A DNA stretch of 64,000 nt from Caldisericum sp. (GTDB taxonomy: Bacteria > Caldisericota > Caldisericia > Caldisericales > Caldisericaceae). This document shows positions 17,154-62,132 of this stretch, piece by piece (the stretch's first letter is position 1; each line of letters opens with the position of its first letter). Position numbers and translations under genes: made by a program. The notes beneath the pieces were generated by a model, which worked only from the letters and a program-made list of their open reading frames with translations, did no database searches and was not told the origin of the DNA. Location: assembly GCA_020692945.1 (NCBI GenBank), contig JAIMJY010000001.1, positions 1 to 64,000 on the forward strand, in the 5' to 3' direction.

Positions 17154-17924
17154 GTGGATATGATGTCATTAGTATATTTAATACCCATAAGTTTAATTTT
17201 AATCATTATCTTTGCGCTGAGTATCAGAATCGTGCAGCAGTGGCAAAGAGGTGTTGTCTTTTTCCTTGGAAGGTACAAGAGGGAACTTAAGCCCGGGTTC
17301 AACTTAATAATACCTATTTTTGAATATGTTCGGTATGTAGATGTGCGTACTCGCACAATGGATGTTACCCCACAAGAAGTTATGACCAAAGATTCTGTTC
17401 CAGTTAAAATTGATGCGGTGGTTTACTACAGGGTGTTTGACGCGATGAAATCGATTATAGCCGTTGAGAATTTTGCTTCAGCATCTACCCTTATGGCACA
17501 GTCTAAGTTAAGAGATGTCGTGGGGAAATACGACCTTGACACTCTTCTTGCAAGTAAGGATAAAATAGGAAAAGAAATCCTTGAAGCCTTGCAGGGGCCA
17601 ACAGATAATTGGGGAATAACCATTGTAAGTGTTGAGATTAAGAATATTGAGCTGCCTGATAATATGAAGCGTGCAATGGCAAAAGAAGCTGAAGCAACAA
17701 GGGAGAAGAGGGCTCGTCAAATCAAAGCATCTGCAGAAGAAGATGCGAGTTTAGCTTTTCTAAAAGCGGCCAAAAATATGTCAGAAGCACCTGGAGCAAT
17801 TCTTTTAAGGCAACTTCAAACATGGCAGGAGATTGGTGCAGAACAAAACAGCCTGATTATCCTTGTCCCAACTGAATTTGCAAACGCAATCGGGAGACTT
17901 CAGTCTAAAAAAGAAGAAAAATAA
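17154..17924 (+). CDS. SPFH/band-7 (stomatin/prohibitin-like) membrane protein
   Basis: 256 aa, N-terminal transmembrane helix then SPFH domain and coiled-coil (EAEATREKRA...). Confidence 0.8.
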   Translation: MDMMSLVYLIPISLILIIIFALSIRIVQQWQRGVVFFLGRYKRELKPGFNLIIPIFEYVRYVDVRTRTMDVTPQEVMTKDSVPVKIDAVVYYRVFDAMKSIIAVENFASASTLMAQSKLRDVVGKYDLDTLLASKDKIGKEILEALQGPTDNWGITIVSVEIKNIELPDNMKRAMAKEAEATREKRARQIKASAEEDASLAFLKAAKNMSEAPGAILLRQLQTWQEIGAEQNSLIILVPTEFANAIGRLQSKKEEK

Positions 17925-18052
17925 TCTACTGAGAAAGAGTATAGATTACAGAAGATTAAATTCACACACTTTTCCAGTGGATTTATTTGCACTCTTTTCG
18001 GCAAATGTGCCTGCATTCTTTCTCAGCGGGTTACAAAGGATTAAAGGAGTAT
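17923..18052 (+). repeat. Cluster of about 3 units of the dispersed hairpin repeat in mixed orientation, downstream of the SPFH gene
   Basis: AATCTA-CTGAGAAAGAGTA-TAGATT-ACAGAAGATTAAA; reverse unit ATTTGC-CGAAAAGAGT-GCAAAT; third unit ending in ACAAAGGATTAAAGGAG. Confidence 0.8.
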
Positions 18053-32326: not shown

Positions 32327-32953
32327 TTAATAAAGCTTCTTAAGGTTTTCTGCCTTAAGAATGTTGATTTTATTTAAAAGATTGTTAGAAATTTCTTGAG
32401 ACTCAGTATCGATTCTTTTAACAAATCCGTAATCATCAATCGACTTAAGATTGATTTTTACGTTAAAATAAGAGCCGCTAATTCCAGCCTCCAAAAAGCA
32501 TAATCCTGTTCCAAAATCGCTTGCAGTTGACTCAAGAGTGTTCTTAAATGCAAAATCTAAGATCTCTGCAACTTCGTAGATAGAGTGCATCATCCGCAAA
32601 GGGGAAAGTGATGCATCTTTAAGTGATTCTTGTATTTTTCCCTTTCTTAAACGTTTATCCTCATCAGTTAATTTGGGAAGCTTAAATGCCTCCATAACAA
32701 TGTCAAAAGCAATTTTGTCGCCATTGGCTAATGTTATAAGTTTATCTATCGAAGACTCAAGTTTTTTAATATTACCGTTTAACTTGACTACAAGTTCTTC
32801 ATCCTTGCTCTTTTTTGCCGCCACCCCCATAGCCATTGAAATCAAGGCCAAACCCATTGCACTGCCAATAGCAGAAGCAGTACCACCGCCCGGGGTTGGG
32901 GAAGAAGAAGATAATTCAAAAAGAAATTCTTTGAGCGTAATTTCGTGAGACAT
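32327..32953 (-). CDS. Cyclodeaminase/cyclohydrolase family protein (formiminotransferase-cyclodeaminase C-domain-like; methenyl-THF cyclohydrolase-like)
   Basis: 208 aa with the N-terminal TPGGGTASAIGSAMGLAL signature of the cyclodeaminase domain. Confidence 0.65.
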   Translation of the reverse strand: MSHEITLKEFLFELSSSSPTPGGGTASAIGSAMGLALISMAMGVAAKKSKDEELVVKLNGNIKKLESSIDKLITLANGDKIAFDIVMEAFKLPKLTDEDKRLRKGKIQESLKDASLSPLRMMHSIYEVAEILDFAFKNTLESTASDFGTGLCFLEAGISGSYFNVKINLKSIDDYGFVKRIDTESQEISNNLLNKINILKAENLKKLY

Positions 32954-32987: not shown

Positions 32988-33177
32988 TCCTTTGTAATCC
33001 ATACTCTTTCTCAGTGGATTTACTCCTAGGGTATATAATATTGTATAAGATTTTCAATATATTTCAAGTGGCTTATTTTTGTAGATGACCTTTGCTTTTT
33101 CACTTTTTTTAACTCTTCTGTAACCTGCGATCTTTCTCAGCAGATTTATTTCCACCTTTTCAGCAGATTTCTAAAGC
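32988..33177 (-). repeat. Three dispersed-repeat units (32988-33030 and 33115-33177) in the upstream region of the rho operon, forming the left border of the accessory island
   Basis: Reverse complement reads AATCCAC-TGAGAAAGAGTA-TGGATT-ACAAAGG, then AATCTGC-TGAGAAAGATC-GCAGGTT-ACAGAA and a partial unit. Confidence 0.8.
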
Positions 33178-33201
33178 AAAATCTCTCCTACCGCAAGATA
33201 G

Positions 33202-33744
33202 GAGAGAGTAATTATTCAAGATGCGTTAGATTTATTAAAACAAGCTGCCCTAAATGCAGGAAATGAAATAAACAAAACTGGAATCTTAAGACAAAGACCA
33301 AATGAAGTTGGAAATGATATAGAAACGTACGTTAAGGATGCTTTAAATTCGTTAGGTTTAAAAGCAGATATTCCAGTAGGACCAAGTGGAAATAAAAAGG
33401 CTATGGGCTATCCTGATGTGCTGTTCTGGTTTAGTGATACACCCTATTATTTAGAATGTAAAACTTACAACATTGAAAATATAGAGACAACACAAAGAAG
33501 CTTTTATTTTTCGCCCTCTGATGAATTTAAAGTGACCTATGATGCGCCTCATTTTATTTTGTCTTTTGAAATTTATGTTTCTGGAGAGCAAGGAGACAAA
33601 CATATCTACAAATGCAAACATTACAAGATTTTGTCCGTAGAATCATTGTCATTGGATGTAAAGTATGAATTTAACTCTGATAATAAGAGAATGTATTCAG
33701 GTAAAGATGGAACAATTATTCTTGCAGAGTACGATATCTCTTAG
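33202..33744 (+). CDS. PD-(D/E)XK superfamily nuclease (restriction-endonuclease-like). The reading frame is open from 33202, but the first canonical start is ATG 33403; the start is uncertain (non-ATG or damaged).
   Basis: Motif GYPD-x14-ECK matches the PD-(D/E)XK active site. The upstream in-frame 67 codons (DALDLLKQAALNAG...IETYVKDAL) look like the helix that normally precedes the catalytic strands, so the protein probably starts before Met 33403. Confidence 0.5.
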   Translation, partial: ERVIIQDALDLLKQAALNAGNEINKTGILRQRPNEVGNDIETYVKDALNSLGLKADIPVGPSGNKKAMGYPDVLFWFSDTPYYLECKTYNIENIETTQRSFYFSPSDEFKVTYDAPHFILSFEIYVSGEQGDKHIYKCKHYKILSVESLSLDVKYEFNSDNKRMYSGKDGTIILAEYDIS

Positions 33745-34057
33745 CATTTGCACTCCTTCTTGCCTTATCATGATTAGATAAAGATTTCTTATTCAGTATT
33801 GCCTCCCTCTCTTTCGACAGCCTTCGTATATTAATTGGTAGGAGGCGAACAAAAATGAGAAAAACAAAAAAGTTATTGGAATAATAAAGAGTATGTTTGA
33901 GTAGAAAAATAAAAAAAGTATAATAAATAGTGGCTAAATAGATGGGAATATGGAGAAAATTAAAATGAATCTATTTGAAGATAAATAGATGTTAGTAATT
34001 TGTTTTAGGCATATAAGATTTGAGGGTTGTCTTTTTATTATTTAGGGAAAAGGAGGC

Positions 34058-34702
34058 TTGTCCATGAAAATCTTTCAAACTGAAGATGAATTAAAAGATC
34101 AGCTAAAAGATCAGATTGACTTTTTGATAAAATCTTCAAAAGCTTACGATGAAGGATTCACAAGTGAGGCAAAAAGACTAGCTACGGGGATTAGAGTATT
34201 GCTCCATGATACTCAAAATTTAACTTCTTTATTAACACTTTTGAAAAAAAATGATATTTTATTTTATGATACTTCATTAGATTATAATCAGAATAGTCTA
34301 CTTCTTACGCCTGGGCTCATTATGCTGAAAATGGGACCTAATGGCGGGGAGTATGTTCCACCGTTAGGTAATGGTCCTCCGACAAGGTATCAGAAGGGAA
34401 AAATTCCATTTACACAATGGTGGAATAAAATTGTGCTCGTAGATGACAAAGGCAATAAACTAACAAGAAAAGACTTAGTTCTCACAGTTTGCGACAAGGA
34501 TGGAGGAGCACATGTTGATCCGAAATTAGATGAAGCTTATTTTGCACTTTCACGATTTAATTCTTTGGGGTGGAAATACATAAAAAATGACGTTGAAAAA
34601 GATTTTGTTACCAGACCAGAATTAGCAAGTATACGGCAAATTAGTTACGAGGTACTAAAATCTCTTAAAGATGAATTTCCAGAATATTTTAAAACAGTAT
34701 AA
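34058..34702 (+). CDS. Hypothetical protein (214 aa), first gene of a three-gene cassette
   Basis: ORF with good RBS context (AAAGGAGG). No family recognised from sequence. Alpha-helical acidic N-terminus, Gly/Pro-rich centre. Confidence 0.5.
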   Translation: MSMKIFQTEDELKDQLKDQIDFLIKSSKAYDEGFTSEAKRLATGIRVLLHDTQNLTSLLTLLKKNDILFYDTSLDYNQNSLLLTPGLIMLKMGPNGGEYVPPLGNGPPTRYQKGKIPFTQWWNKIVLVDDKGNKLTRKDLVLTVCDKDGGAHVDPKLDEAYFALSRFNSLGWKYIKNDVEKDFVTRPELASIRQISYEVLKSLKDEFPEYFKTV

Positions 34703-34714
34703 GCCATCAATAAT

Positions 34715-35338
34715 TTGCAAGAGTTAGATAAAATTAAGTTTAAGGAGGAGGTAAATATGATTACAAAGCCAGTTGTAATTAAGTTTTTTGCTCCTGTCAT
34801 TGAAGTTACGATTAATGCTCTAATGAATGCTATTGATCAGAAAATGAAACAAGGGATAACAAATTTTATAATTCTAATTTCTTCACCTGGTGGTATGGTT
34901 TTTCACGGTTTAAGTGCATACAATTATTTGAAAGGAATACCTGCCATAATAACTACACACAATTTTGGTAGCGTGGACTCAATAGGTGTTGTTCTATATT
35001 GTGGTGGATCAAAAAGACTATCAGTACCTCAGGCAAGATTCTTACTTCATGGTGTTAGTGCCAATTTTGAACAGAAGACAAGCTTAGAAGAAAAGCAATT
35101 AGAAGAGAGGTTGAAAGGATTAAGGATTGACGTTGAGAATATTGCTAAGGTAATTGCGGCAAATACAGGTAAGAGTGTGGAAGCTGTGATAAATGCTATG
35201 CTTGAACGAACAACATTGAATCCTGAAGAGGCTCAAGCTTGGGGACTTGTGAATGAAATTAGATCCGAATTATTTGAAGCAGGGAGTGAAGTAATTTCAA
35301 TACAATTTCAACAACAGAATCCTAATATGCAGCCCTAA
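34715..35338 (+). CDS. ClpP/S14-family serine peptidase-like protein (ATP-independent, stand-alone)
   Basis: ILISSPGG motif aligns with the ClpP INSPGG block. Candidate nucleophile Ser in GSVDSIG and His in LLHGV align with ClpP Ser/His. The Asp position is not conserved (RT instead of RD). Lies 13 nt after the upstream gene. Confidence 0.65.
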   Translation: MQELDKIKFKEEVNMITKPVVIKFFAPVIEVTINALMNAIDQKMKQGITNFIILISSPGGMVFHGLSAYNYLKGIPAIITTHNFGSVDSIGVVLYCGGSKRLSVPQARFLLHGVSANFEQKTSLEEKQLEERLKGLRIDVENIAKVIAANTGKSVEAVINAMLERTTLNPEEAQAWGLVNEIRSELFEAGSEVISIQFQQQNPNMQP

Positions 35339-35401
35339 CTTAAACCATAAAACTATTATGCACATGCAAAGAAATTTCATACCAAGTAAAAGGATTGAAA
35401 T

Positions 35402-35908
35402 ATGAAAATAGAATGGAACTGGCAAGTAATAACAATAATAATAACTTCTATAGTTGCAGTTTATGGTGCAATACTTTCTACTGTGAACATGATAGCAAAT
35501 ATTAGAGATAAACAACTGCATTTATCTGTTGTTTTAAAAAGTGGTAGTTTAGAAGGCTCTTACTTACGTTTTGGCCCTCCTTCTGCCTCTTCAATGCTCT
35601 TTATAGTAATCGCAAATGTAGGTAGTAAAGTTGTAACAATACAAGTTATTAATATAAAAGTGACAAAAGGATCTTTCTTGCCTATATGGAATATCATTAA
35701 CCCAAAGGGGGTCTCTCTTCCTTATACTTTAGAGGAAAGTCAAAATTGCATTGCTGGAGTTGATATAAAGGAACTTTCCAAAAAACTCATCCAAAGTGGA
35801 TGTTCTAAAATTATTAAACTTCATGCTATTGTTGTAAGCGGAACAGGAAAAACATACAAGTCAAAGAAAGCATGGATACTTAATTTAGATAAATATAATA
35901 AACAATAA
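35402..35908 (+). CDS. Small membrane-anchored hypothetical protein (N-terminal TM helix, beta-rich C-terminus)
   Basis: 168 aa. Hydrophobic stretch VITIIITSIVAVYGAILSTV. Third gene of the cassette. Confidence 0.45.
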   Translation: MKIEWNWQVITIIITSIVAVYGAILSTVNMIANIRDKQLHLSVVLKSGSLEGSYLRFGPPSASSMLFIVIANVGSKVVTIQVINIKVTKGSFLPIWNIINPKGVSLPYTLEESQNCIAGVDIKELSKKLIQSGCSKIIKLHAIVVSGTGKTYKSKKAWILNLDKYNKQ

Positions 35909-36033
35909 TTGCTATTATAAAATGAAATTGATCGACTTTCCAATTATAATTTAAGAAAATATTGTGTTTTTATCTGAATATAGTTAAAATAAGATATCTG
36001 TTAAAATAAATGCATTAAGGGGTCCATAACAAA

Positions 36034-36363
36034 ATGAAAAAAGATAAAAAGTTTCAAGGCCAAGGAGTGCAAAAATGGAAACATCCGGGAGGAAAGTTAA
36101 GAGAACTGGGGGCAGACAAACTTTCTGATGCAGAGCTGTTGGCTATTCTTATTTCAACAGGCACGAAAAATAAGTCGGCAGAAGCAATAGCCAATGAACT
36201 TATTAGTAAATTTGGATCCTTTCGTGGCTTAGCGAATCAACCGCTTTCTAAGCTTCTTGAAATTAACGGACTCGGTGATGTCAAAATTATACGTATCGCT
36301 GCTACTTTTGAAATAGCGCGTAGAATTGCTAACGAAATAGTTAAAACTTATGAGCAAAAGTAA
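36034..36363 (+). CDS. RadC N-terminal domain-like helix-hairpin-helix protein lacking the JAB/MPN domain
   Basis: LSDAELLAILISTGTKNKSAEAIANELISKFGSFRGLANQPLSKLLEINGLGDVKIIRIAATFEIARR closely matches the RadC N-terminal HhH region. Its stop overlaps the start of the downstream RM gene by 14 nt. Confidence 0.7.
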   Translation: MKKDKKFQGQGVQKWKHPGGKLRELGADKLSDAELLAILISTGTKNKSAEAIANELISKFGSFRGLANQPLSKLLEINGLGDVKIIRIAATFEIARRIANEIVKTYEQK

Positions 36364-39300
36364 AAAATTAGGAAAGATTTCATCAGAAACAAAAACAACT
36401 ATTCCAAATCCTTTTGAGATATCGACTCACAAAACAGAAAGGTCAGGTGCTGCTGTCATTATGCACTGGATGAGAGATATTATAGAGGAGAAGAATATTG
36501 ATTTAGGTTTACCTGATGTTGAAACAGGTGGCAAGGATAGCCTCTTTCCAGATACAATAATTAAAAAAACAAGAATAAGTCATGATGTTTTATGTGTTAT
36601 GGAGTTTAAACCCCCTCACTGGGATCCTTTTAACTATGATGATCCAAAAGAACCAGCTCGGAAAAAAGCTACCAAAAGAAACGCAAAATACTTCGCTACC
36701 TCGAACTTTCGAGATTTGATTCTTTGGAGTACTGAAAAGGTTAATGCCAACAAACCAGAAGAAGAACAAATCGTTTCACGCTATCATTTGTCAGATATTT
36801 ACGACCTTGACATGCTTGAGGACAATAGATACAAGGTTCCTACTAAAAAAGAGCTTGAAAAGTTTTTGACTGATCTTTACGAGTTTTCTACTGGTACCAA
36901 GGTTGAGCCACTTTTGGCTGTTGATGAATTACTCATTTATCGTCTTCAGGAAAAAATTGGAAAACTCGCGTACTATTATAGAGAAATTATTTATGATAAG
37001 ACTCACAAGGATAAAGATTTTGCCGAAAAGCTCTCAAAGTGGTTTACGGAACAAGGTTGGAGTTTTTTCATAGAAGATGAAGATTGTTATAATCGCATAG
37101 CTCATCAAACAGCATATCTTTTAGCAAATAAAATTATCTTCTACAATGCTTTGCAATTAAAGCGTCCTGATAAGCTAAGTCCATTAAGCATTCCTGAAGA
37201 CCTTACTCATGGCAAGATATTAGAAGGTTTCCTACAGTCATATTTTAAGTCTGTGCTTGATATAGATTATGAAACAATTTATACAACTGACTTTATTGAT
37301 GAAATTGCTTTTCCTGATAGTAAAGAAGTTGTTGAAGAAATCAAGAGCTTGGTTAATATTCTAAAACAATATGACTTTTCAAGCTTAGGTTTCGATGTAA
37401 TTGGTAGAATATTTGAGCGTTTAATTCCAGCGGATGAGAGACATAACTTAGGGCAATATTTTACCAATCCAGATATCGTTGATTTGATACTTCAATTTTG
37501 CATAAAAAACGAAAGAGATAAAATTTTTGACCCTTCTTGCGGTGCAGGCACCTTCCTTGTGCGTGCTTATCAGTATAAAAAACTGATGAACCAGAGGTTG
37601 CAGCACGAGGAAATCTTAAACACTCTTTGGGGAAACGATATCGCCAAATTTCCAGCCCATCTTTCTACAATTAACCTTGCGATAAACGACCTTTCGGTAG
37701 AGAAGAATTATCCTAGAATCATGCAGAAAGACTTCTTTGACCTCTTAGCTTCGCCGGATGAAGGATTTCGTTTGCCAGAGGACGTGAGAAAAGTTCTGTT
37801 AAAAACAATGAGCAATGAGGAATTTGAAATTGTCCACCCTCGTTGGTTTGATGTAATTGTAGGAAATCCTCCTTACACGAGGCAAGAGGAGATTTCCGAG
37901 ATTTCTGGAGATGAAGCGTACAAGGGAAATTTAATTGACAAAGCACTGAGATATGGAAATAATAAAATAGCAGATATTTCAAAGAGAGCTGGTATCTATG
38001 CGTATTTCTTCGTCCATGGAACTAAATTTCTGAAAGATAGTGGGCGTTTTGGTTTTATTGTTTCAAATGCCTGGCTTGACGTTGAGTATGGGGCTGGACT
38101 CCAAGAATTCTTTCTTGAAAACTACAAAATCGTTGCTATTATTGAGTCCAAAGTAGAGCGATGGTTTAAGGATGCGGATATTAATACTGTAATTGTGATT
38201 CTTGAAAAATGCAAAGAAAAAGAAGAGCGAGACAATAATGTTGTTCGTTTTGTATATTTGCTTAAGACTCTTCGAAATTTTATCCCTCCAGCTCAAACAA
38301 TCTGGGAAAAACAAATTGGAAGAAAGCAGGCCATAGATAATTTAATTAAGACTATCCTTGCACACTCAGAACTTTATGAAAATGAAGAGCTCAGGATTTT
38401 TGCCAAGAAACAATCAGAGCTCTGGGACGAAGGGTTAGACCCTGAAGAGCAAAAATATGTTGGTTCAAAGTGGGGAAAATATTTAAGGGCACCAGAAATC
38501 TTTTTCAAAATTTTGGAGAAAGGAAAAGACAAATTAGTCCCACTGAAAAAAATTGCAGATGTACGACGAGGTTTTACAACCGGCGCTAATGAGTTTTTCT
38601 ATTTAACTGAAGAAGAAATAAAACGCCGCAAGATTGAGAAAGAATTTTGGATGCATCAAGAGGGAAGAGGCAACTGGGTGCCAAACTATATTATTAAAAG
38701 CCCAAGGGAGTGTAAATCAATCATTGTTAATCCTAAAGATTTGAAGTACCTAGTTCTAATGATTCACAAAGATAAGGAAGATTTGAAGGGCACTAATGTC
38801 TTAAAATACATTGAAGAAGGTGAACGAAATGGATTTCATAATAGGCCGACGTGTGCAAGCAGGGAAAGATGGTATGAACTAACAGAGTTTAAAAGTAATA
38901 TTGTATGCATGATGACAGTAAATAAAAGGCATATTTGGCTTGATAATAGAAATGAATTTTTTATTGACGCAAGATTATACGGTGCTAACATAAAAGACAA
39001 TAGATATAAAACAATTTTAGGCACCATGCTTAATTCTACTTTGTTTTGGTTATTTACAGAATTGTGGGGGAGAGTGAATTTAGGAGAAGGAGCTCTTGAC
39101 GTTAAGGTTTATGAATATGCTTCTATGCCAGTATTAAAATTTGATAATAGGTTAGAAGAATTATTTAAAAACGAGATTTACAAAAGACCTATTAATGATG
39201 TTTTTGATGAGCTTGGTGTCTCTTCCCCTGAAAAAGTCTCTCTTGACAAAGTTAAGCCCGACAGAAGAGAATTAGATAAGATTGTAATGGGAGATCTCCT

Positions 39301-39826
39301 TGGATTAACTGATGACGAGCAATTAGAGGTCTATCATTCGGTCGTGGATTTAGTAAAATCAAGAATTGAAAAATCAAAAAGTGTTGGAAAATCTCACAAA
39401 GTAAAAAAAGGCATAGATATAGATGCAATATTAGTGCTCATTATAGAAAAGATTGGCGATAAAAGTCTTAAGAAGTGGTATGAAGAAAAAATTCTATCAA
39501 GAAACGACCTGGAAACAAAAGAGCTTCCCGAGATAGGCAATAACTTAAAGATAGAAAAAGGGCTTTATGGTTGGAAAATCAAAGGTGAAAGAGGTACCTT
39601 GCAATGCACTTCTGAGGCTGAGGCAGAATATTTGAAAGTATGGATTGAAATAGGTGCCAAATCTATTGATATTCCAAAAGATGAAACATATTTATCAAAA
39701 GTTGCAGAAGAACTTAAAACTCTTAAGAAAGAAATAGGCGATATAATTGATTCATATCTTGGTTCAGTTTTAGATATTAAATTAAAATCGCAAATTCTAT
39801 ATCGAATTTGGCAAAGTATAAGTTAA
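36350..39826 (+). CDS. Type IIG/IIL restriction-modification fusion enzyme: N-terminal PD-(D/E)XK endonuclease, gamma-class N6-adenine DNA methyltransferase, C-terminal target-recognition region
   Basis: 1158 aa. Nuclease motif FPD-x18-EFK near the N-terminus. MTase motif I FDPSCGAGTFLV and motif IV VGNPPYT. Long C-terminal region typical of TRDs in MmeI/Eco57I-like enzymes. Confidence 0.8.
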   Translation: MSKSKKLGKISSETKTTIPNPFEISTHKTERSGAAVIMHWMRDIIEEKNIDLGLPDVETGGKDSLFPDTIIKKTRISHDVLCVMEFKPPHWDPFNYDDPKEPARKKATKRNAKYFATSNFRDLILWSTEKVNANKPEEEQIVSRYHLSDIYDLDMLEDNRYKVPTKKELEKFLTDLYEFSTGTKVEPLLAVDELLIYRLQEKIGKLAYYYREIIYDKTHKDKDFAEKLSKWFTEQGWSFFIEDEDCYNRIAHQTAYLLANKIIFYNALQLKRPDKLSPLSIPEDLTHGKILEGFLQSYFKSVLDIDYETIYTTDFIDEIAFPDSKEVVEEIKSLVNILKQYDFSSLGFDVIGRIFERLIPADERHNLGQYFTNPDIVDLILQFCIKNERDKIFDPSCGAGTFLVRAYQYKKLMNQRLQHEEILNTLWGNDIAKFPAHLSTINLAINDLSVEKNYPRIMQKDFFDLLASPDEGFRLPEDVRKVLLKTMSNEEFEIVHPRWFDVIVGNPPYTRQEEISEISGDEAYKGNLIDKALRYGNNKIADISKRAGIYAYFFVHGTKFLKDSGRFGFIVSNAWLDVEYGAGLQEFFLENYKIVAIIESKVERWFKDADINTVIVILEKCKEKEERDNNVVRFVYLLKTLRNFIPPAQTIWEKQIGRKQAIDNLIKTILAHSELYENEELRIFAKKQSELWDEGLDPEEQKYVGSKWGKYLRAPEIFFKILEKGKDKLVPLKKIADVRRGFTTGANEFFYLTEEEIKRRKIEKEFWMHQEGRGNWVPNYIIKSPRECKSIIVNPKDLKYLVLMIHKDKEDLKGTNVLKYIEEGERNGFHNRPTCASRERWYELTEFKSNIVCMMTVNKRHIWLDNRNEFFIDARLYGANIKDNRYKTILGTMLNSTLFWLFTELWGRVNLGEGALDVKVYEYASMPVLKFDNRLEELFKNEIYKRPINDVFDELGVSSPEKVSLDKVKPDRRELDKIVMGDLLGLTDDEQLEVYHSVVDLVKSRIEKSKSVGKSHKVKKGIDIDAILVLIIEKIGDKSLKKWYEEKILSRNDLETKELPEIGNNLKIEKGLYGWKIKGERGTLQCTSEAEAEYLKVWIEIGAKSIDIPKDETYLSKVAEELKTLKKEIGDIIDSYLGSVLDIKLKSQILYRIWQSIS

Positions 39827-39875
39827 TATTTTGAATATGAATGTTACTTAATTGTTTTGAAATGAATTTTGCTAT

Positions 39876-39903
39876 TTGATGTTTTCCTGCAATCTGTTAT
39901 AAT
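39876..39903 (+). promoter_or_regulatory. Sigma70-like promoter with extended -10 (TTGATG -35, 16 nt spacer, TGTTATAAT) upstream of the toxin-antitoxin operon
   Basis: Hexamers read directly. RBS AGGGAGG follows. The same TCTGTTATAAT box recurs at 219-232 and about 62388. Confidence 0.45.
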
Positions 39904-39924
39904 ATTTCAAAAGGGAGGTTAAGA

Positions 39925-40509
39925 ATGTATAAAATTGAAGAAATCATTGAGGCTCTCCTTTACTTTGCAGGTTCGCAAGACATTAAGACAAAAATAGTAA
40001 AAGCATGCTATCTTTTAGAGTCAGAATATTTTGATAAGACAGGCCAAAGACTTACTGACATTGAGTATAAATATCACCTTTACGGTCCTTATAGCGAAGC
40101 TATTATAAGTTCAATGATGAACGATAAAAATATTGCATATAGCCCTCAAACAAGCATGAATGGAAATGAGTACGATTTGTTCAAACTTAAAAAAACTTCT
40201 GTTATCGCTAAAATTGATTCATTGGCACTTTCCTTTATCGAGAAGTGGGCAAAGATAATGCAGCAAAAGACATATAACGAAATGTTAGAACTTGCATATA
40301 ATGATAAGAATTTTAAGAGAACTGAAAAAGGACAAATCATAAAGTTTGATTCAGATTTTCTCAAAAAGAAAGAGTTGTTAAAGAAAAGAGCAAAGGAAAA
40401 ATTCGGAAACCGTAAACTAACAAAAGAAGAAGCTGACGGCTTGAAAGAAGCAGGCAACGAAGACTTAATTCAATACTCAAGGAAGTTATTAAAAGAGTCA
40501 GGTAGATGA
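39925..40509 (+). CDS. Panacea-domain (DUF4065, SocA-like) antitoxin
   Basis: N-terminal LLYFAG ... YKYHLYGPYSEAI pattern typical of Panacea/DUF4065 proteins. 4 nt overlap with the downstream toxin gene. Confidence 0.7.
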   Translation: MYKIEEIIEALLYFAGSQDIKTKIVKACYLLESEYFDKTGQRLTDIEYKYHLYGPYSEAIISSMMNDKNIAYSPQTSMNGNEYDLFKLKKTSVIAKIDSLALSFIEKWAKIMQQKTYNEMLELAYNDKNFKRTEKGQIIKFDSDFLKKKELLKKRAKEKFGNRKLTKEEADGLKEAGNEDLIQYSRKLLKESGR

Positions 40510-40886
40510 AAGCGCGTGTTCACCCTAAACGAGGCTTTGTATATAGAATTATTCTTAATTATATAGATAGACCTGCAGAATCTAATGAAAAGCATATGGT
40601 CGTTGTTATCCAAAACAATGATATTCTAAAATGGTCAAGAGAAGTTAATGTCTTGGAAATAACAAGTAACCCGAGGGACATTAGTGCACCATATAACGTT
40701 TCTCTTCCAGCAAAAACTCTAACGAGCCAATATCAATCAACCGACAGCAAAATTAAATGCCATGTCCTTTATGGAGTCAAGATAGAAGATTTGCTTAACG
40801 GAGAGTATTGCGGAAAAATCCCAAGTGAAATTATGAAAGAAATTGACGATGCAATTATTTTTTCACTTGGATTGTCAGAAGATTAA
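40506..40886 (+). CDS. MazF/PemK-family type II toxin (endoribonuclease fold)
   Basis: 126 aa with the conserved pattern RGFVY ... HMVVVIQNND ... ITSN ... KCHVLYGVKIEDL ... GKIPSEIMKEIDDAIIFSLGL matching Kid/PemK/MazF. Confidence 0.7.
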   Translation: MKARVHPKRGFVYRIILNYIDRPAESNEKHMVVVIQNNDILKWSREVNVLEITSNPRDISAPYNVSLPAKTLTSQYQSTDSKIKCHVLYGVKIEDLLNGEYCGKIPSEIMKEIDDAIIFSLGLSED

Positions 40887-40906
40887 TAGTTCAGAAGATT
40901 AATAGT
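40875..40906 (+). repeat. Perfect tandem duplication of the 16-mer TCAGAAGATTAATAGT spanning the toxin stop codon
   Basis: Read directly: two identical 16-mers followed by a partial third (TCAGAATATAATAA). Confidence 0.6.
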
Positions 40907-41069
40907 TCAGAATATAATAAAGTTTTATTGTGTGGAGCAAATTATGGACGACCAGGAAAAACAAAAAATTGACGTTATAATGAAAGACTATGAAATACTA
41001 AAAACCTATTCTACTCCAGTCGGAAAAAAAGTCAAACAATTTGAATCAGACCTTTTGTTAAGTTTCATA

Positions 41070-41172
41070 AACCTGCTGAGAATGATCGTGGGTTCCAAAG
41101 GATTAAATCCACTGAAAAGGATCGTGGATGAATCCGATGAAAATGAGCTCGGATTTCAAAGGAGTGACAAAA
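41070..41172 (+). repeat. Three dispersed-repeat units forming the right border of the accessory island, upstream of tilS
   Basis: AACCTGC-TGAGAATGATC-GTGGGTT-CCAAAGGATTAA; ATCCAC-TGAAAAGGATC-GTGGAT; AATCCGA-TGAAAATGAGCT-CGGATTT-CAAAGGAGT. Confidence 0.8.
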
Positions 41173-41202
41173 TATTAAACGGGGGGCAGCAGAGAAGTAA
41201 AT

Positions 41203-42546
41203 ATGGAAAACAGCCTGATAGACAAAATAAAAGAGGCTATAATTAATTTCAGCCTCATAGAGAAAAACGAGAAGGTGCTCATCGGGGTTTCGGGAGGACC
41301 AGACTCTTTGGCATTGCTTGCGGCATTGAATAAGCTTAAAAATGAATTGAATTTTTCAATAGCTGTTGCGACCTTTAATCATTTGATAAGAGATGAGTCG
41401 GGAAGCGAAGTCGAATTCGTAAGAGAGCTAACCAAAAATCTCGGAGTCCCCTTTTACACCAAACAAGAAGACATATTAAAAATTGCAAAAATGGAGTTTC
41501 TTTCTTTAGAGGAGGCTGCAAGGAAAGCGCGATTGGATTTCCTTTTTGCAATAAAAGACGAAAATCATTTTGATAAAATTGCTCTTGCTCATACCCTTGA
41601 TGACCTCGTAGAAACAATGCTATTTCATTTGATTAAAGGTACAGGAGCTTCGGGCTTAATTGGAATGAAGCCAAAAAGTTTTAACGGAATCATTCATCCG
41701 ATGCTAAGCGTTGAGAAAAAGGAAGTATTAGTTTTCTTGACAAATGCCAAAATCAGCTATAAATCAGACCTGACCAACCTCTCGCTTCGATACGAAAGGA
41801 ATAAAGTGCGCCTTCAAATCGTGCCGATGTTTGAAGCAATGAATCCTAATTTTAATAAGCACATGCTGTATACATCGCTTGTTTTGAGAGATGAGGACGA
41901 ATTCATCGAAGCTATTTCTAATAAAGACGCCAAGGTGATAAAAGATGGTGACTCGTACTCAATTTCAATCTTTAATAACCTCCCCATTTTTGAAAAAAGA
42001 AGAATCCTCAGGGCTATATTGGGAAAAGAATCAAATTTTGAAAGAATCGAAAGGGCTATGCTCTTTCTCAAGGGCAAGTTCGGCAGGCTCAACATTTTCG
42101 GAGAAACTTACATCGTATCAAGTAGCAGCCATTTTTGGCTCGAACAAAAAACTCCCTTCACGATAGATAGGAAAATCGTACTTGAGATTCCCGGAACTAC
42201 CGTTATTCCCGATGCAGATCTCGCAATAGAAACGCTTCTGAGCAGCAACCTTCCGGTATTAGACAATCTCAATGTTGCTTTTGATTTGAAAGAGCTCAAG
42301 TTGCCTTTAAGAGCTCGCTTCAGGCGCGAAGGAGACAAAATGCTAACAGAAGTTGGTTACAAAAAAGTTCAAGATATTTTTACTGACTGCAAGGTAAGAA
42401 GAGACAAGCGATATAAAACGCCAATTGTAACTGACAGAGACGATGAAATTCTCTGGATACCTGGAGTAAAGAGGAGCTCCCTAAATAAAATAAGCAATAA
42501 AGCGTCACAAACGCTTATTCTTAAGGCCGTATTTAATAAAAAATAA
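41203..42546 (+). CDS. tilS: tRNA(Ile)-lysidine synthetase
   Basis: 447 aa with N-terminal PP-loop (VSGGPDSLALL) and TilS C-terminal domain. Confidence 0.9.
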   Translation: MENSLIDKIKEAIINFSLIEKNEKVLIGVSGGPDSLALLAALNKLKNELNFSIAVATFNHLIRDESGSEVEFVRELTKNLGVPFYTKQEDILKIAKMEFLSLEEAARKARLDFLFAIKDENHFDKIALAHTLDDLVETMLFHLIKGTGASGLIGMKPKSFNGIIHPMLSVEKKEVLVFLTNAKISYKSDLTNLSLRYERNKVRLQIVPMFEAMNPNFNKHMLYTSLVLRDEDEFIEAISNKDAKVIKDGDSYSISIFNNLPIFEKRRILRAILGKESNFERIERAMLFLKGKFGRLNIFGETYIVSSSSHFWLEQKTPFTIDRKIVLEIPGTTVIPDADLAIETLLSSNLPVLDNLNVAFDLKELKLPLRARFRREGDKMLTEVGYKKVQDIFTDCKVRRDKRYKTPIVTDRDDEILWIPGVKRSSLNKISNKASQTLILKAVFNKK

Positions 42547-54045: not shown

Positions 54046-54135
54046 TTGCTCTTTACCTCCCTGTTATAATTAAAATCAGTTCTTTTAATCCCCTGGAATC
54101 CACTGATAAGGATCGTGGCTTTACTCTCTTCTTAC

Positions 54136-54236
54136 TTCTTTGTAATTGCTGCCTTTGCAATTTATCGCATTTCTTTTCAGCGATTCCAAAAGAATAAATC
54201 TGTTGAAAAAGAGTGCAGATTATAAAAGAATAAAGA
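54136..54236. repeat. Two or three dispersed-repeat units in mixed orientation between the efflux operon and the NHL-protein gene
   Basis: AATTGC-AAAGGCA-GCAATT-ACAAAGAAG (minus strand); ATCGC-ATTTCTTTTCA-GCGAT; AATCTGT-TGAAAAAGAGT-GCAGATT-ATAAAAGAATAAAG. Confidence 0.7.
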
Positions 54237-57435: not shown

Positions 57436-60400
57436 TCACGGGTATTTCTCGCCGTAATGCTTTGCAAGCATGAAAAAATCGATGCTGCTTATAATGCCGT
57501 CAAAATTAAGGTCACAGGAGGCGTTGTATCCTGTATCACCCTTTTTTTTCAAGAAGCTTGCTTTGAGAATGTTCAAGTCAAGATTATTGATTGCGTTATC
57601 ATTGTTCAAATCAAAGAAATGTGAATAATCAGAAATATTATAATACAGTTGTGGAAGGACAAAACCTAAAAGCTGAGAACTCTGAACAGAAGAAACGCCA
57701 ACAAAACCAGACCCATTGTCCAACGCTTTCAGTTTTAATGAAGCTATCACGCTCTTGTTTGTGAATGAGCTAGTTTCGGATGTCAAAGAAATTTTAACTA
57801 CCCCGTTCTGGATATCGGAGGTAAAATTTATGTCATCTGCCAGGCTTTTCCCTTTCTGACATTCGCTGACCGCAAAGTGGTACGGGTCGAAATTGAAGTT
57901 AAAGTTAAGGCTCCCCGCCAGTTTTAAAGAATCAACGTATACGTCAAGCCAAAATTCATTTCCGTTCTTCAATAAAAGCGTAAAATTGTTTTGAGGAACA
58001 ATGTATATGGTGTTGGAAGGAGACTGTGATACAGTAAATGTACCACTTGAGGAAGAAGTAACTTCTGTTGGCAAGACAATCTTTGCACCTTCGTTAACGG
58101 TTGCTTCTATGTACTCTACTTTATAGTAATAGGTACCGTTGTCGTACTTGAAATCTTGCGATAAATCCATTAGAGAGAGGTTTGCGGAATAATCGCCAAC
58201 GTAAATAGGGGCTTGGTCAAATATTGTATCAATCAACTTGCCCGAAAAATCATAAACATCAACCTTTACCTCCTCAGCAACGTTTCCGTTAAAAGTGGAA
58301 TTGTCATCAGACATGCTTTGTCCTATGCCAACCGTAAACTGTACTACGAGGTTGTTTTGAGGAGTCAAACCGGTGCCTGATATCTTAACGTTGTTTAGTA
58401 CAGGCTGGATTGAGGCATTGGCAATGTAGACAAAAGGAATGTGTAAATTTATTGAGCTTGAGTCTTTGAGGTAAATATATCCGTAGGCCTCCGACGACTC
58501 TTTCAAAGCAGAAAAATTAGCAGTGAAAGTAGCAGTGCCGTTTACTGGCACACTAACAATAAAAGGCAGAGTAATTGAAATTTTGTCATTTGAAACCATT
58601 TGATAAGAAGTAAAGAAAGTTTTTGCATTGCTTGATAAGTTAGTCACAGTAAACGTTACTGACTTAGTTAAATCACCGTTACCAAAAATCACTGAGGATG
58701 GTTTAATGAAATAATTTGAATTGATAGCATTTAATGCATTTATTCTGCCCGCTCCTTGCATTAATGGAGAAAAAGGAAGCCCGGAGTACGGGTTGATGAG
58801 TACGTCAGAGGAATTCATCAATAAAGCCTTTGCATCATCAGGGCTGATGTTCGGCCTCCACTGCTTTAGCAAGGCAGAAACGCCTGCAACTACTGGAGAA
58901 GCCATTGAAGTGCCACTCATTACGCCAACTTTATCTGCCGGAAGCGTTGAACTAACATTCACTCCAGGAGCTACCAAATCAGGTTTGAAAAACAAATCTG
59001 AAGTTGGTCCGTCAGAGGAGAAATCAGCGATCCGTCCGAGGCCATATTTATTCTGAATGTATATACCTAAAGATAGATTCTCCTTTAGTGTTTGCCCGTC
59101 AGTGAAAGAAACAAATAGAAACGGTATGAACCCAGTTGCTTGAGGGTTACTTTCAGAAGATAGTTGTATACTGGGGATACCACTAACATTGTTATATACT
59201 ATTACTCCGATTGCTCCTGCGCTCTTAGCGTTGAGATCTTTATCACCAAAATATATCTTACCTCGTTCAATGAAGGCAATTTTACCTTTAACGTCTTTCC
59301 CTTGAAAGTCACTTGGCTCTCCAAGACCGCAGTAGACCATATCATAATTTCCATCATTAAAAAATGGAGATTCTGGAGGGTAATTAGCAAGAATTTGCTT
59401 ATTACCAGAGGTTATAACTCCTGTGATGCTATCATCGGTTGCCCCGACTCCGATAGCTTTGTCCACAGAAGCAGGGGAGGAGAGCGGAAATTCCACTGAA
59501 TCAGAGCGCGAGCCCTTATTCCCTGCAGCAGCCACAACAACTACCCCGCTGCCAACCGCATTTCTTACGGCTAAAGACTGAGGGTCGTCTCCAAAAGCCT
59601 GCCCTCCAACCGTACCAATAGATATGTTAATGATGTTACATTTATCCTTAACTGCTTGTTCGATGCCTTGAATTATTGTCGAAGTAGAGGTAGAATTATC
59701 GTTACCCGAAAATACCTTATAAGCTCTTATTTTTGCATCAGGAGCAATGCCATCGACAGAACCTGCTATTATGCCAGCCACATGTGTACCATGGCCGTCG
59801 GAATCTTTTGGATCAGCATCGTCATCTGCAAAATCATAACCTCCGATCACTTTAGAGTTTGGAAAATTGCCTCCTCCAAGCTCTTTGTCAGTGTAATCCA
59901 CACCGGTGTCGACAATACCAACTACAATGCCTTTTCCTGTGATATAGTTATTGGAAGAATCTTTCTTTTTGTTCACGACATCTGATTGTATAACTTTTGT
60001 GAGAGTAGTCCTCTCAAGATAAACTGGATTATCTTCAAAGATACCGCTAACATCTTTAAAATTGGCAATGCCTTTGATATCAGTGCCTTTGACCTTGCAA
60101 GCAACAGCATTTACGGTGTAGGAAAATGAAAATCTTGTTTCCCCACCAAGTGAAGAAACTAAATCTGAAAACTTTTCGTGGAAACTTTGGATTTGTGCTT
60201 CATAGGAGTCCGCTTCATTCCTGTTTACAAATGACAGCAGCTTATAAGCAAAGCTTTTTCTGTACTCTAAAACTGGTGGTTTGTTGAACACTACAATAAC
60301 TTGTTTAAATTCATTTGAATAAAAGTCAAATTTTCCGAAAAATTTTGCACTTATTCTTTCATAATCCACGATCTCTATCAGTGGATTTACTCTCCCGTAC

Positions 60401-60465
60401 GATGACGGAAGTGAGCTCATTAGAAATAATATGGTTAGCATTAAAGCTACAACAACCCTTTTCAT
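57436..60465 (-). CDS. Subtilisin-like (S8) serine protease with PA/fibronectin-like domains and a C-terminal dockerin-type module. The pro-region carries an in-frame dispersed-repeat unit.
   Basis: 1009 aa. Signal peptide. Catalytic triad contexts VGIVDTGVD, HGTHVAGII and GTSMASPVVAG. C-terminal duplicated calcium-binding loops DLNNDNAINNLDLNIL and DLNFDGIISSIDFFML resemble a type I dockerin. Confidence 0.85.
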   Translation of the reverse strand: MKRVVVALMLTILFLMSSLPSSYGRVNPLIEIVDYERISAKFFGKFDFYSNEFKQVIVVFNKPPVLEYRKSFAYKLLSFVNRNEADSYEAQIQSFHEKFSDLVSSLGGETRFSFSYTVNAVACKVKGTDIKGIANFKDVSGIFEDNPVYLERTTLTKVIQSDVVNKKKDSSNNYITGKGIVVGIVDTGVDYTDKELGGGNFPNSKVIGGYDFADDDADPKDSDGHGTHVAGIIAGSVDGIAPDAKIRAYKVFSGNDNSTSTSTIIQGIEQAVKDKCNIINISIGTVGGQAFGDDPQSLAVRNAVGSGVVVVAAAGNKGSRSDSVEFPLSSPASVDKAIGVGATDDSITGVITSGNKQILANYPPESPFFNDGNYDMVYCGLGEPSDFQGKDVKGKIAFIERGKIYFGDKDLNAKSAGAIGVIVYNNVSGIPSIQLSSESNPQATGFIPFLFVSFTDGQTLKENLSLGIYIQNKYGLGRIADFSSDGPTSDLFFKPDLVAPGVNVSSTLPADKVGVMSGTSMASPVVAGVSALLKQWRPNISPDDAKALLMNSSDVLINPYSGLPFSPLMQGAGRINALNAINSNYFIKPSSVIFGNGDLTKSVTFTVTNLSSNAKTFFTSYQMVSNDKISITLPFIVSVPVNGTATFTANFSALKESSEAYGYIYLKDSSSINLHIPFVYIANASIQPVLNNVKISGTGLTPQNNLVVQFTVGIGQSMSDDNSTFNGNVAEEVKVDVYDFSGKLIDTIFDQAPIYVGDYSANLSLMDLSQDFKYDNGTYYYKVEYIEATVNEGAKIVLPTEVTSSSSGTFTVSQSPSNTIYIVPQNNFTLLLKNGNEFWLDVYVDSLKLAGSLNFNFNFDPYHFAVSECQKGKSLADDINFTSDIQNGVVKISLTSETSSFTNKSVIASLKLKALDNGSGFVGVSSVQSSQLLGFVLPQLYYNISDYSHFFDLNNDNAINNLDLNILKASFLKKKGDTGYNASCDLNFDGIISSIDFFMLAKHYGEKYP
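60363..60392 (-). repeat. Dispersed-repeat unit in frame in the S8 protease, just after the signal peptide
   Basis: Reverse complement AATCCAC-TGATAGAGATC-GTGGATT, translated VNPLIEIVDYE in the same reading frame as the moeA and etfA copies. Confidence 0.7.
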
Positions 60466-60484
60466 TGCGTCCTCCTAACTTTTA

Positions 60485-60580
60485 TTCTTCTGTAACCCGA
60501 GATCATTTTCATCGGATTTATCTATGCACTTCTTTCCAGCGGATTTACTCCTCTGTATCCGCACTTCTTACCAGAGGATA
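60485..60580 (-). repeat. Two degenerate dispersed-repeat units in the divergent promoter region between the S8 protease and the HAD hydrolase genes
   Basis: Reverse complement AATCCGA-TGAAAATGATC-TCGGGTT-ACAGAAGAA and a second partial unit with the CTCCTCTGTA linker. Confidence 0.6.
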
Positions 60581-61783: not shown

Positions 61784-62132
61784 TGGTGGAGGCGGCGGGA
61801 GTTGAACCCGCGTCCGAGTAAGTAACCCATACCGACGACTACAGGCTTAGTCGATCATTGTTTTTCTGTCTCCGCACCCGAGCGACAGGGTTTGGACACA
61901 TATCCTGAATTATACTTTGCAACATAGGCTCAGGCAACCTACACTGCAAGACCTGCATTCCTACGTTTTGAACGTCCTACAGGTGGAGACTGCCCAAAAC
62001 GTTAGCTGCCTATGCAGCTAATGCGTAATTATAATCGGCGTTTATATTTTTTGGTGGATGTTTAAAGAGGCCAACCACCGTCCTCTGCCTGCTCCGGTAT
62101 GCTCCACTTATCCGTCGAGCCCCAGCGCCCCC
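61784..62132 (-). ncRNA. ssrA: tmRNA (transfer-messenger RNA)
   Basis: 5' GGGGGCGCUGGGGCUCGACGG and 3' tRNA-like end GGACGCGGGUUCAACUCCCGCCGCCUCCACCA on the minus strand. Internal tag reading frame ...(N)ADYNYALAA-stop. Candidate promoter TTGTAA-16-TATAAT just upstream (about 62152-62180). Confidence 0.85.

Follow-up and report, generated by a model that had tools for sequence, protein, structure and literature searches.

Why should a gene that encodes only the first domain of the protein RadC lie in front of, and overlap, the gene of a restriction-modification (RM) enzyme? The question is raised by positions 36,034 to 36,363 of a 64,000-nucleotide stretch of Caldisericum sp. DNA (assembly GCA_020692945.1, contig JAIMJY010000001.1, positions 1 to 64,000 of the forward strand; hereafter the window). 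Here a small open reading frame (ORF) encodes 109 amino acids that match the helix-hairpin-helix (HhH) region at the N-terminus of RadC (UPF0758), and its end overlaps the start of a gene for a 1158 amino acid Type IIG RM enzyme. We find the same two genes side by side in many bacteria and archaea, inherited and moved together. Our tentative reading, to which we give somewhat less than an even chance, is that the small protein, which contains two HhH motifs ((HhH)2), is a DNA-binding cofactor without sequence specificity that is translated together with the Type IIG enzyme.

The small protein and its family

The features of the small gene and its product are the following:

36034..36363, + strand: gene for the 109 amino acid standalone (HhH)2 protein, RadC N-terminal domain (UPF0758_N) only; ATG start, TAA stop (ORF and Pfam)
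Residues 1-11: disordered, Lys-rich tail (AlphaFold2 (AF2) model)
From residue 15: W15-x-HPGGKLRELG motif, invariant (alignments)
36154..36174, + strand: first HhH hairpin, S41 T42 G43 T44 K45 N46 K47; G43 invariant, K45 and K47 invariant or nearly so (alignments)
36265..36285, + strand: second, canonical HhH hairpin, N78 G79 L80 G81 D82 V83 K84; G-L-G-D-V invariant in 39 sequences
Residues 82-108: long C-terminal helix (AF2 model)

Pfam assigns residues 16-86 to UPF0758_N (PF20582; E=1.3e-19; 70.5 bits against a cut-off of 27.1), which accounts for model positions 8-77 of 77, and finds a weak HHH_2 match at residues 50-93. The Pfam search returned no match to PF04002, the JAB/MPN domain, in this protein, whose chain ends at residue 109. 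The NCBIfam models of RadC match it solely via their N-terminal positions 3-86 of 212, and its scores fall below the curated cut-offs for whole RadC proteins (79 versus 180 bits for NF000642; 63.5 versus 133.85 for TIGR00608). Since the match is restricted to the N-terminal positions of the RadC models, the small protein is, to judge from its sequence, the RadC N-domain alone. The earlier note on this DNA, made from the letters only, had quoted the sequence of the 109 amino acid ORF exactly and recognized both its RadC N-terminal HhH match and its lack of a JAB/MPN domain; the ORF, Pfam and NCBIfam results agree with it, and so does a six-frame scan of the window, which found no JAB/MPN signature (HxHPxG, HNHP or a loose JAMM pattern) in a real ORF. 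The annotation “DNA repair protein RadC” given by the Joint Genome Institute (JGI) should not be used for this protein; the NCBI name, “UPF0758 domain-containing protein,” is accurate.

The homology to RadC/UPF0758 (e.g., E. coli YicR) extends over the whole N-terminal HhH domain and follows the pattern PxxxL...LSDxELLAIL...GxxGxS...GIGxxKA...EL.RR. Unlike RadC, the small protein has no JAB/MPN domain, and it is found in an RM/defence operon rather than at a housekeeping radC locus. RadC's JAB domain is known to be fused to an HhH domain (Iyer et al. 2011; PMC3239186), and fusions of RadC JAB domains to HhH, ArdC, primase and DinG helicases have been described (Iyer et al. 2011, 2017; PMC3239186, PMC5512222). 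As the function of RadC is still open in the literature, including a 2025 review (PMC3239186, PMC5512222 and, for the review, PMC11981726), homology to RadC provides no mechanism.

Could insertion of the RM cassette have severed a host radC, of which the ORF is merely the leftover 5' part, as the earlier note had offered as one possibility, or is the ORF what remains of a frameshifted radC? A match confined to the first ~86 positions of the RadC models is what such a remnant would give, and the locus shares its island of low GC content with a degraded R.MjaV gene. The relatives of the protein point the other way. A search of 5.8 billion proteins returned 2097 relatives of the small protein at E<=1e-3; the best 120 of these are all 97-126 amino acids long, consist of UPF0758_N alone, are 67-95% identical to the window protein and come from Poribacteria, WOR-3, Patescibacteria/CPR (candidate phyla radiation), Nitrospirota, Desulfobacterota and others. 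The size of the family and its uniform single-domain make-up are beyond chance by far. Members from different bacterial and archaeal phyla are 65-95% identical, while full-length RadC proteins are ~37-50% identical to the family. In an exhaustive search of representatives clustered at 50% identity the nearest proteins are again standalone (~90-130 amino acids), and RadC-sized proteins of 220-243 amino acids begin to appear at ~37-50% identity. Among 12 phylogenetically scattered members, 44 alignment columns are invariant, including W15, H17-PGGKLRELG-26 and G79-LGDVK-84. By these alignments the family forms a separate clade, far more conserved than RadC and marked by the signature W-x-HPGGKLRELG.

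It is the protein that is under selection. In pairwise comparisons of 82 distinct homologous genes, identity is 0.79, 0.92 and 0.41 at the first, second and third codon position, respectively, and therefore reflects purifying selection on a protein and not on a DNA or RNA element. The gene is intact and under strong purifying selection at the protein level. A frameshifted radC was considered and rejected: the next reading frame is that of the enzyme gene itself. The remnant hypothesis also has to face the length of 109 amino acids, which is typical among hundreds of homologues; the higher identity to homologues in other phyla than to real RadC; the lack of JAB coding potential in every frame of the 64-kb window; and the movement of the small gene together with the enzyme gene (see below). 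Truncation of a radC by the cassette is refuted by these results, and the pseudogene reading as a whole is effectively excluded, with a probability that we consider negligible.

The enzyme and its linkage to the small gene

The junction and the downstream gene have the following features:

36350..36363, + strand: 14-nt overlap between the end of the small gene (...Y E Q K stop) and the start of the enzyme gene, whose ATG is embedded in TAT-GAG codons; reads ATGAGCAAAAGTAA
36350..39826, + strand: gene for the 1158 amino acid single-chain Type IIG RM enzyme; ATG start (Pfam, PADLOC)
36548..36610, + strand: predicted nuclease catalytic motif P67-D68...E85-F-K87, invariant in 7 orthologues from different phyla and within the REase_MTase_IIG match
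37529..37876, + strand: methyltransferase core, motif I to motif IV (Pfam and orthologue alignment)
37529-37555, + strand: motif I, D394-P-S-C-G-A-G-T-F402; DPxCGAGTF invariant in the 7 orthologues
37865-37876, + strand: motif IV, N506-P-P-Y509; NPPY invariant in the 7 orthologues
38882..39199, + strand: hypervariable block, presumed target-recognition domain, approximately residues 845-950, the only part where the consensus of the 7 orthologues breaks down

In the enzyme a PD-(D/E)xK nuclease at the N-terminus is combined with a gamma-class N6-adenine methyltransferase, a region for target recognition and, at the C-terminus, a further conserved region. Its Pfam domains are Eco57I (1.1e-22), N6_Mtase (1e-21), MmeI_Mtase and M_Eco57I_C, and residues 60-980 match the PADLOC model REase_MTase_IIG (E=5.2e-52); among the models for known multi-gene defence systems (BREX, MADS, DISARM and others), MADS2 and PglX match it only partially and far under their cut-offs (75.6 versus 720 bits and 19 versus 400 bits). 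By motif and profile the downstream partner qualifies as a Type IIG enzyme. It shares the defining layout of Eco57I, MmeI and DrdV (Type IIG/IIL), i.e., the PD-(D/E)xK nuclease, the gamma-class N6-adenine methyltransferase with NPPY and the variable recognition domain, and is distantly related to the solved members: the closest of these (DrdV, 7lo5; MmeI, 5hr4; Type I M subunits) match over the methyltransferase core only. To our knowledge, the Type IIG enzymes described so far have been treated as self-sufficient single polypeptides, sometimes accompanied by a separate second methylase. Over 83 orthologues, column conservation in the hypervariable block is 0.36-0.49, compared with 0.6-0.9 elsewhere in the enzyme. 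Because the small protein is constant while the recognition block of the enzyme varies, the small protein is unlikely to be a specificity factor.

How often do the two genes occur together? In ten distinct contexts of small-gene homologues, a gene for an Eco57I-type methyltransferase of ~1090-1210 amino acids lies downstream on the same strand in 10 of 10, in most of them with an overlap of ~11 nt. We then have two scans that approach the pair from its two sides. In the scan anchored on the enzyme (one genome per species; 75 evaluable orthologue loci, 43-65% identical, from bacteria and archaea), the small gene is upstream on the same strand in 69 of 75 loci (~92%): it abuts or overlaps the enzyme gene in 61, lies at 437-842 bp in 8, and is missing in 6, where three of the enzymes look intact and three are shortened. 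The bacterial loci come from Chloroflexota, Nitrospirota, Desulfobacterota, Planctomycetota, Ignavibacteriota, Zixibacteria, Bacteroidota, Acidobacteriota, Gemmatimonadota and several CPR groups; the archaeal ones from Pacearchaeota, Woesearchaeota, Methanosarcinales and Methanobacteriota. In the scan that started from the small protein (contigs from metagenomes; at least 526 matches, 73 evaluable loci), the enzyme is adjacent in 50 of 73 loci and within ~700 bp in a further 9, and the remaining 14 have other content. The earlier note had taken an HhH-only gene next to an RM enzyme for something unusual. On the contrary, the pairing is the rule for this enzyme family and no oddity of one locus; its suggestion to look for the same upstream gene next to orthologous enzymes is answered by the 69 of 75, and the ORF is neither a frameshifted radC nor absent from other copies of the enzyme.

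The pair also moves as a unit. When the window island is compared by blastn with loci fetched from unrelated contexts, the similarity starts at 36062-36082, where the core of the small protein begins, and ends at 39826-39832, at the stop of the enzyme gene. Since the similarity is limited to 36062-39832, the horizontally moving unit is exactly the two genes, which we accordingly describe, on the strength of these alignments, as one conserved, horizontally mobile two-gene operon. The two genes have one evolutionary history in common: the distance matrices of their proteins are correlated (Mantel r=0.63, p=0.001, n=83 pairs), and the small protein is the more conserved partner (mean distance 0.32 versus 0.41 for the enzyme). 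The pair is spread over more than 20 phyla of bacteria and archaea, and the module is widespread in uncultured members of both. In viral sequences it is all but missing (one contig of 3.3 kb in IMG/VR), and the phage and plasmid collections INPHARED and PLSDB, which represent cultured organisms, hold ordinary radC only (<45% identity). We found no description of a small standalone RadC-N/HhH gene coupled to Type IIG enzymes in the full-text literature, subscription journals and REBASE being outside the scope of that search.

The 14-nt overlap with the ATG of the enzyme gene, also pointed out in the earlier note, follows directly from the coordinates. In ~62 of 71 directly adjacent, distinct junctions of other loci the overlap is 4-38 nt, most commonly 11, 14 or 17 nt, and the start codon of the enzyme typically falls inside the last codons of the small protein. 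In the window, the 20 nt that precede the enzyme ATG have no core resembling a Shine-Dalgarno (SD) sequence. This architecture suggests that the translation of the two genes is coupled.

What the small protein may do

The AF2 model of the small protein (from an alignment of 39 sequences) is all-helical, with a mean predicted local distance difference test score (pLDDT) of 86.7, and helix pairs flank both hairpins. Both hairpins (S41-K47 and N78-K84) contain Gly and are invariant or nearly so across the 39 sequences; by analogy with the general HhH literature they are predicted to bind phosphates. The profile of the protein matches the tandem (HhH)2 repeats of topoisomerase V (Topo V; E=2.5e-6). 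In a Foldseek search of the PDB the top matches are all HhH domains (the MutY core, the NusA AR domain, XPF/ERCC1, Hef, DisA) and are weak (E>=0.35; template modelling scores 0.36-0.51); a structure of UPF0758_N itself has not been solved. The N-terminal HPGGKLRELG and the long C-terminal helix have no counterpart in the domains of Topo V, XPF/ERCC1, Hef or NusA AR, and the NusA AR domains are (HhH)2 modules that bind proteins, not DNA. The isoelectric point (pI) is 9.9 (family median 9.2). The all-helical model, the Topo V profile match, the invariant GxG hairpins and the basic pI would together fit DNA binding. HhH contacts are typically made with the DNA backbone and are not sequence-specific. 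Some representatives carry two copies of the module in tandem in one chain of ~190-215 amino acids, which suggests that the working unit may be a dimer.

Fusions connect the module with DNA modification. In four divergent clusters (P0221 and P0275-P0277; 511-535 amino acids, 57-69% mutually identical, from both NCBI and JGI sources) it is fused to the N-terminus of a complete SPPY-type DNA methyltransferase of the large M.MjaV-type family; the HPGxKL signature is retained in the fused module, which shares 52% identity with the window protein. Rare as they are, these fusions show that the module is able to work in cis with a DNA methyltransferase. In one locus of this kind (L176) a degraded MjaV fragment follows, and the M.MjaV family involved is the one whose cognate type of nuclease gene has left a remnant in the window island. 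Separately, a single 711 amino acid representative (P0167) has the HhH module fused to a long TPR array, which would be a context of protein interaction rather than of a DNA enzyme.

It is possible to assemble these observations into a mechanism. The small protein, basic, all-helical and derived from the RadC N-domain, would bind the DNA backbone non-specifically through its two hairpins, as its pI, its similarity to Topo V and general knowledge of HhH proteins lead us to expect. It would be made from the same mRNA as the enzyme, with ribosomes that finish the small ORF re-initiating at the embedded start of the enzyme gene. Probably as a dimer, it would then act alongside the enzyme on DNA, perhaps in physical contact with it, and influence its activity by helping with loading, with staying or tethering, or with assembly. 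Sequence specificity would remain in the enzyme's own variable recognition domain. The earlier note had suggested that an HhH module was recruited as an accessory or regulatory subunit of the Type IIG enzyme. Recruitment, be it as a subunit, as a regulator or in some other role, gains support from the conserved, co-inherited and overlapping linkage and from the methyltransferase fusions.

Several results weigh against such a cofactor. The Foldseek matches to HhH domains are weak, as noted. The small gene is missing upstream of three orthologous enzymes that look intact (L062, L074, L080), and therefore the enzyme can persist without an adjacent copy. Across the family, an SD-like core precedes 42% of the enzyme starts and 40% of the small-gene starts, figures too close to show that the enzyme gene depends on coupling. 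Fusion to the Eco57I-like enzyme itself was found neither among ~130 junctions nor among the top 150 representatives, and unfused relatives of the M.MjaV-type methylases lack a small gene upstream in the two loci checked, where the R.MjaV endonuclease gene is next downstream. N-terminal DNA-binding extensions of methyltransferases can be regulatory (M.SsoII-type), and therefore the fusions do not discriminate between a cofactor and a regulator. Finally, the small gene is not exclusive to the window enzyme family: in a minority of loci it heads other, unrelated cargo, which favours a generic role over a dedicated subunit interface.

The sequence upstream of the small gene bears on the question of regulation. 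In the window it contains:

35909..36033, + strand: 5' intergenic region of the operon (sequence and consensus scan)
35922-35950, + strand: candidate promoter ATGAAA-17-TATAAT (consensus scan)
35962-35990, + strand: candidate promoter TTGTGT (35962-35967), 17-nt spacer, TAAAAT (35985-35990) (by eye)
36017-36022, + strand: SD-like AAGGGG, 11 nt 5' of the small-gene ATG

Modules of unrelated genomes do not have this region in common with the window. In approximately one quarter of modules, a near-consensus sigma-70-type promoter (ATTGACC, 17/18 nt, TA(A/C)AAT, then TAGGC) lies ~35-45 nt upstream of the small-gene start. The modules that carry it form a sister subclade with short N-termini (MQKW... 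or MKTW...), one bin of which is labelled Pacearchaeota; the window clade is without the TTGACC-TAAAAT promoter common to this subclade. When 13 of the promoters are aligned, only the -35 and -10 elements are invariant; the spacer and flanks vary and have no dyad symmetry. A search for an operator or C-box by k-mer enrichment and inverted-repeat counts in 65 non-redundant upstream regions gave only the subclade promoter; perfect 7-nt inverted repeats occur in 18 of the 65 regions versus 10.9 expected, at scattered positions and with scattered sequences. A search of the island for RNA elements with Rfam gave none at E<=0.1. The promoter-bearing loci, by our locus numbers, are:

L103, L129, L119, L144, L131, L026, L040, L028, L113, L145, L130, L166, L029

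The promoter subclade is enriched in insertions of toxin-antitoxin (TA) genes and in alternative cargo. In the loci with other cargo, the small gene is followed by a second or a third Type IIG family (PADLOC PDLC03610, E=2e-273; PDLC03630), by a Dsr1-like protein, by a PLD nuclease, by GHKL ATPases, or by a PglXI-like methylase whose gene has a 14-nt overlap with a second copy of the small gene. In one arrangement (L012/L115, 6001-12291) the small HhH gene is followed by the gene for a 1083 amino acid Dsr1-like protein (PADLOC E=9e-43, Dsr1 positions 291-1209, without the N-terminal part) and then by genes for a 1093 amino acid Type IIG enzyme, which belongs to another family, and for a KAP NTPase, perhaps as a composite defence operon. 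Type II TA pairs of at least four unrelated kinds are inserted on the same strand behind the small gene and ahead of the enzyme gene, the last TA gene ending at or inside the enzyme start. The junction is thus a precise hotspot for TA insertion within an RM operon. The kinds and the loci are:

TA kind: 62 amino acid antitoxin and 84 amino acid ParE/RelE-like toxin
TA kind: 75 amino acid protein and 138 amino acid PIN protein
TA kind: PHD/HicB-like protein and HicA
TA kind: DUF4258 and DUF2283-like protein
Loci with TA insertions: L026, L029, L033, L036, L090, L092, L104, L117, L122, L130, L133, L160, L168

In the promoter subclade, one 30-nt gene start, ATGAARAAAACCAARCTCACYGAAAARCCY (MKKTKLTEKP), is common to the window-type enzyme, to another Eco57I-type enzyme and to dead-end remnants of 9-44 codons. 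The two enzyme families that share it are only 26% identical over the methylase core. Column identity within the block is 0.90, compared with ~0.5-0.6 on both flanks, and the differences inside it fall at synonymous sites. The block might serve as a hotspot for crossover, as a docking peptide or in re-initiation; the idea of a general direct repeat that flanks the modules was rejected, since only 2 of 15 promoter-bearing modules carry the block upstream. Its positions are:

Sites of the 30-nt start: L026 4983, L033 1000, L104 1966, L155 6285, L130 1680, L117 1384
Further sites: L010 2145, L028 702, L145 964, L144 6948, L152 6960, L107 6764, and others

Some modules are tandem, with two copies of the small gene (L010 1214-2568; L107 6001-7328; L145 140-1372). 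Behind the first copy come a TA pair and what remains of an enzyme-gene start, behind the second an intact enzyme, which is a Type IIG enzyme in L010 and a PglXI-like methylase of 846 amino acids in L107. In L010 each small-gene copy has a separate copy of the promoter.

Could the small protein be a regulator rather than a cofactor, i.e., an analogue of the controller (C) proteins of RM systems or of other defence-operon regulators, which would bind DNA in or close to its own promoter and so adjust how strongly the operon is transcribed, e.g., to delay or cap enzyme expression when the module enters a new host? C proteins such as C.PvuII and C.AhdI are encoded by small genes upstream of, often overlapping, and co-transcribed with the nuclease gene, and the small ORF with its 14-nt overlap of a nuclease-bearing gene has this classic arrangement. 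The small gene heads several defence cargos, as generic regulators do (BrxR/CapW-type WYL regulators are conceptually alike in that one conserved DNA-binding gene stands 5' of varied defence cargo), the N-terminal fusions to methyltransferases would fit the autoregulatory extensions known from such enzymes, and the sister subclade carries a conserved promoter along with the small gene. However, C proteins are Xre-type helix-turn-helix (HTH) dimers that sit on palindromic C-boxes in their own promoters, whereas the small protein has an (HhH)2 fold, whose contacts are typically with the backbone and non-specific; it matches no HTH family in Pfam, its domain being UPF0758_N/HhH, matches no PADLOC family, and has no homology to BrxR/CapW, which are wHTH-WYL proteins with defined operators. 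The upstream regions contain no operator-like dyad or conserved motif other than the promoter, and similarity between unrelated loci begins inside the ORF. Although their predicted DNA-binding hairpins are nearly identical, the window clade and the promoter subclade have no upstream element in common, and within the subclade itself only the -35 and -10 are fixed, leaving the spacer free. Moreover, the rationale of making the methylase first and the nuclease later does not apply to a polypeptide in which the two are fused. We consider a controller distinctly unlikely.

A different possibility is that the promoter, the small gene and the junction form a portable platform for expression or recombination, behind which conflict genes are swapped, so that the job of the small protein would be generic and unrelated to the catalysis of the cargo, e.g., in establishing the module or in recombination. 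The TA pairs of at least four unrelated families, placed exactly between the two genes with the toxin stop abutting or overlapping the enzyme start, would be natural on such a platform, as would the tandem modules with their own promoter copies, the alternative cargo, the near-consensus promoter that travels with the small gene, and the 30-nt start that two enzyme families and dead-end remnants have in common. But the same enzyme family is present in ~81-92% of loci and diverges together with the small protein, a tighter association than a free platform would lead one to expect. The conserved unit contains no recombinase, integrase or transposase, the 30-nt block seldom precedes the promoters (the 2 of 15 above), and the window clade shows the simple two-gene form only. 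The strong conservation of the protein sequence would also be left unexplained. We regard a platform of this sort as unlikely. A DNA-binding cofactor of the enzyme thus remains the reading that we favour, with the reservation given at the outset. It is tempting to go further and to hypothesize that these Type IIG enzymes in fact have two components and depend on a DNA-loading (HhH)2 protein that is universal, interchangeable and descended from the RadC N-domain, and that this protein, with the portable promoter and the conserved junction, is a hitherto unrecognized modular operon head behind which defence cargos (several Type IIG families, other methylases and nucleases, TA pairs) are swapped across bacterial and archaeal phyla; we find this broader proposal doubtful. 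If true, it would give the first functional handle on the RadC N-terminal domain.

Both the use of Type IIG enzymes as tools and their study as defences assume that one polypeptide suffices, and linkage of ~90% suggests that the assumption fails for this family. Should the partner be required, an enzyme expressed alone in a heterologous host could be inactive or misbehave, and pipelines that mine genomes for Type IIG systems and treat each as a single gene would miss a component. The pairing shows that the N-terminal HhH domain of RadC is able to function on its own, as a module linked to DNA-modifying enzymes. In addition, the TA pairs at one junction, the portable promoter and the common 30-nt start provide a concrete system for studying how defence cargo is exchanged.

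The surrounding island

The gene pair lies in a low-GC island at 33000-41200 (0.31-0.36 compared with ~0.38), between an FTCD_C gene (32327..32953, - strand) and tilS (41203..42546, + strand). The island is >99% identical in three NCBI assemblies (GCA_020693205.1, GCA_017973935.1 and GCA_020692315.1). Its other features are:

33217-33744, + strand: 5'-truncated remnant of an R.MjaV-type Type II endonuclease gene (residues 50-221 of 223, 42.6% identity, E=3e-37)
34058..34702: phrog_7805 protein (E=3e-52)
34715..35338: ClpP-like or head-maturation-protease-like protein
35402..35908: 168 amino acid protein of unknown kind
39925-40886, + strand: SocA/Panacea-domain antitoxin (194 amino acids) and PemK/MazF toxin (126 amino acids) with a 4-nt overlap, directly downstream of the Type IIG gene

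Within the endonuclease remnant, the ORF 33403..33744 matches Pfam MjaV and PADLOC REase_II. No cognate M.MjaV-type methylase is present anywhere in the 64-kb window, and the remnant, at the island's left edge, is therefore what is left of a dead RM system.

Two kinds of repeats were noticed. A perfect 16-nt tandem repeat (TCAGAAGATTAATAGT x2, 40875-40906) straddles the stop codon of the PemK/MazF toxin gene. The second, TTCTCAGYRGATTT, is dispersed between genes, with 23 matches (at most 2 mismatches) in the window compared with 3.95 expected; none of 100 shuffles reached 23. The island is bracketed by imperfect inverted repeats made up of the copies at 32997-33170 and 41067-41129. Terminal inverted repeats specific to the island, which would make it a transposon (33.0-41.1 kb), were considered and rejected, as these repeats are copies of the motif that is dispersed through the window. 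The motif is genome-wide and resembles repetitive extragenic palindromic (REP) elements; it is not island-specific. Its copies and one further feature of the window are:

278/350, 2205, 17922-18033, 33008-33170, 41069-41118, 54096-54209, 60375-60546, 61721: copies of TTCTCAGYRGATTT, clustered in intergenic gaps
61784-62132, - strand: tmRNA gene, tag peptide ADYNYALAA

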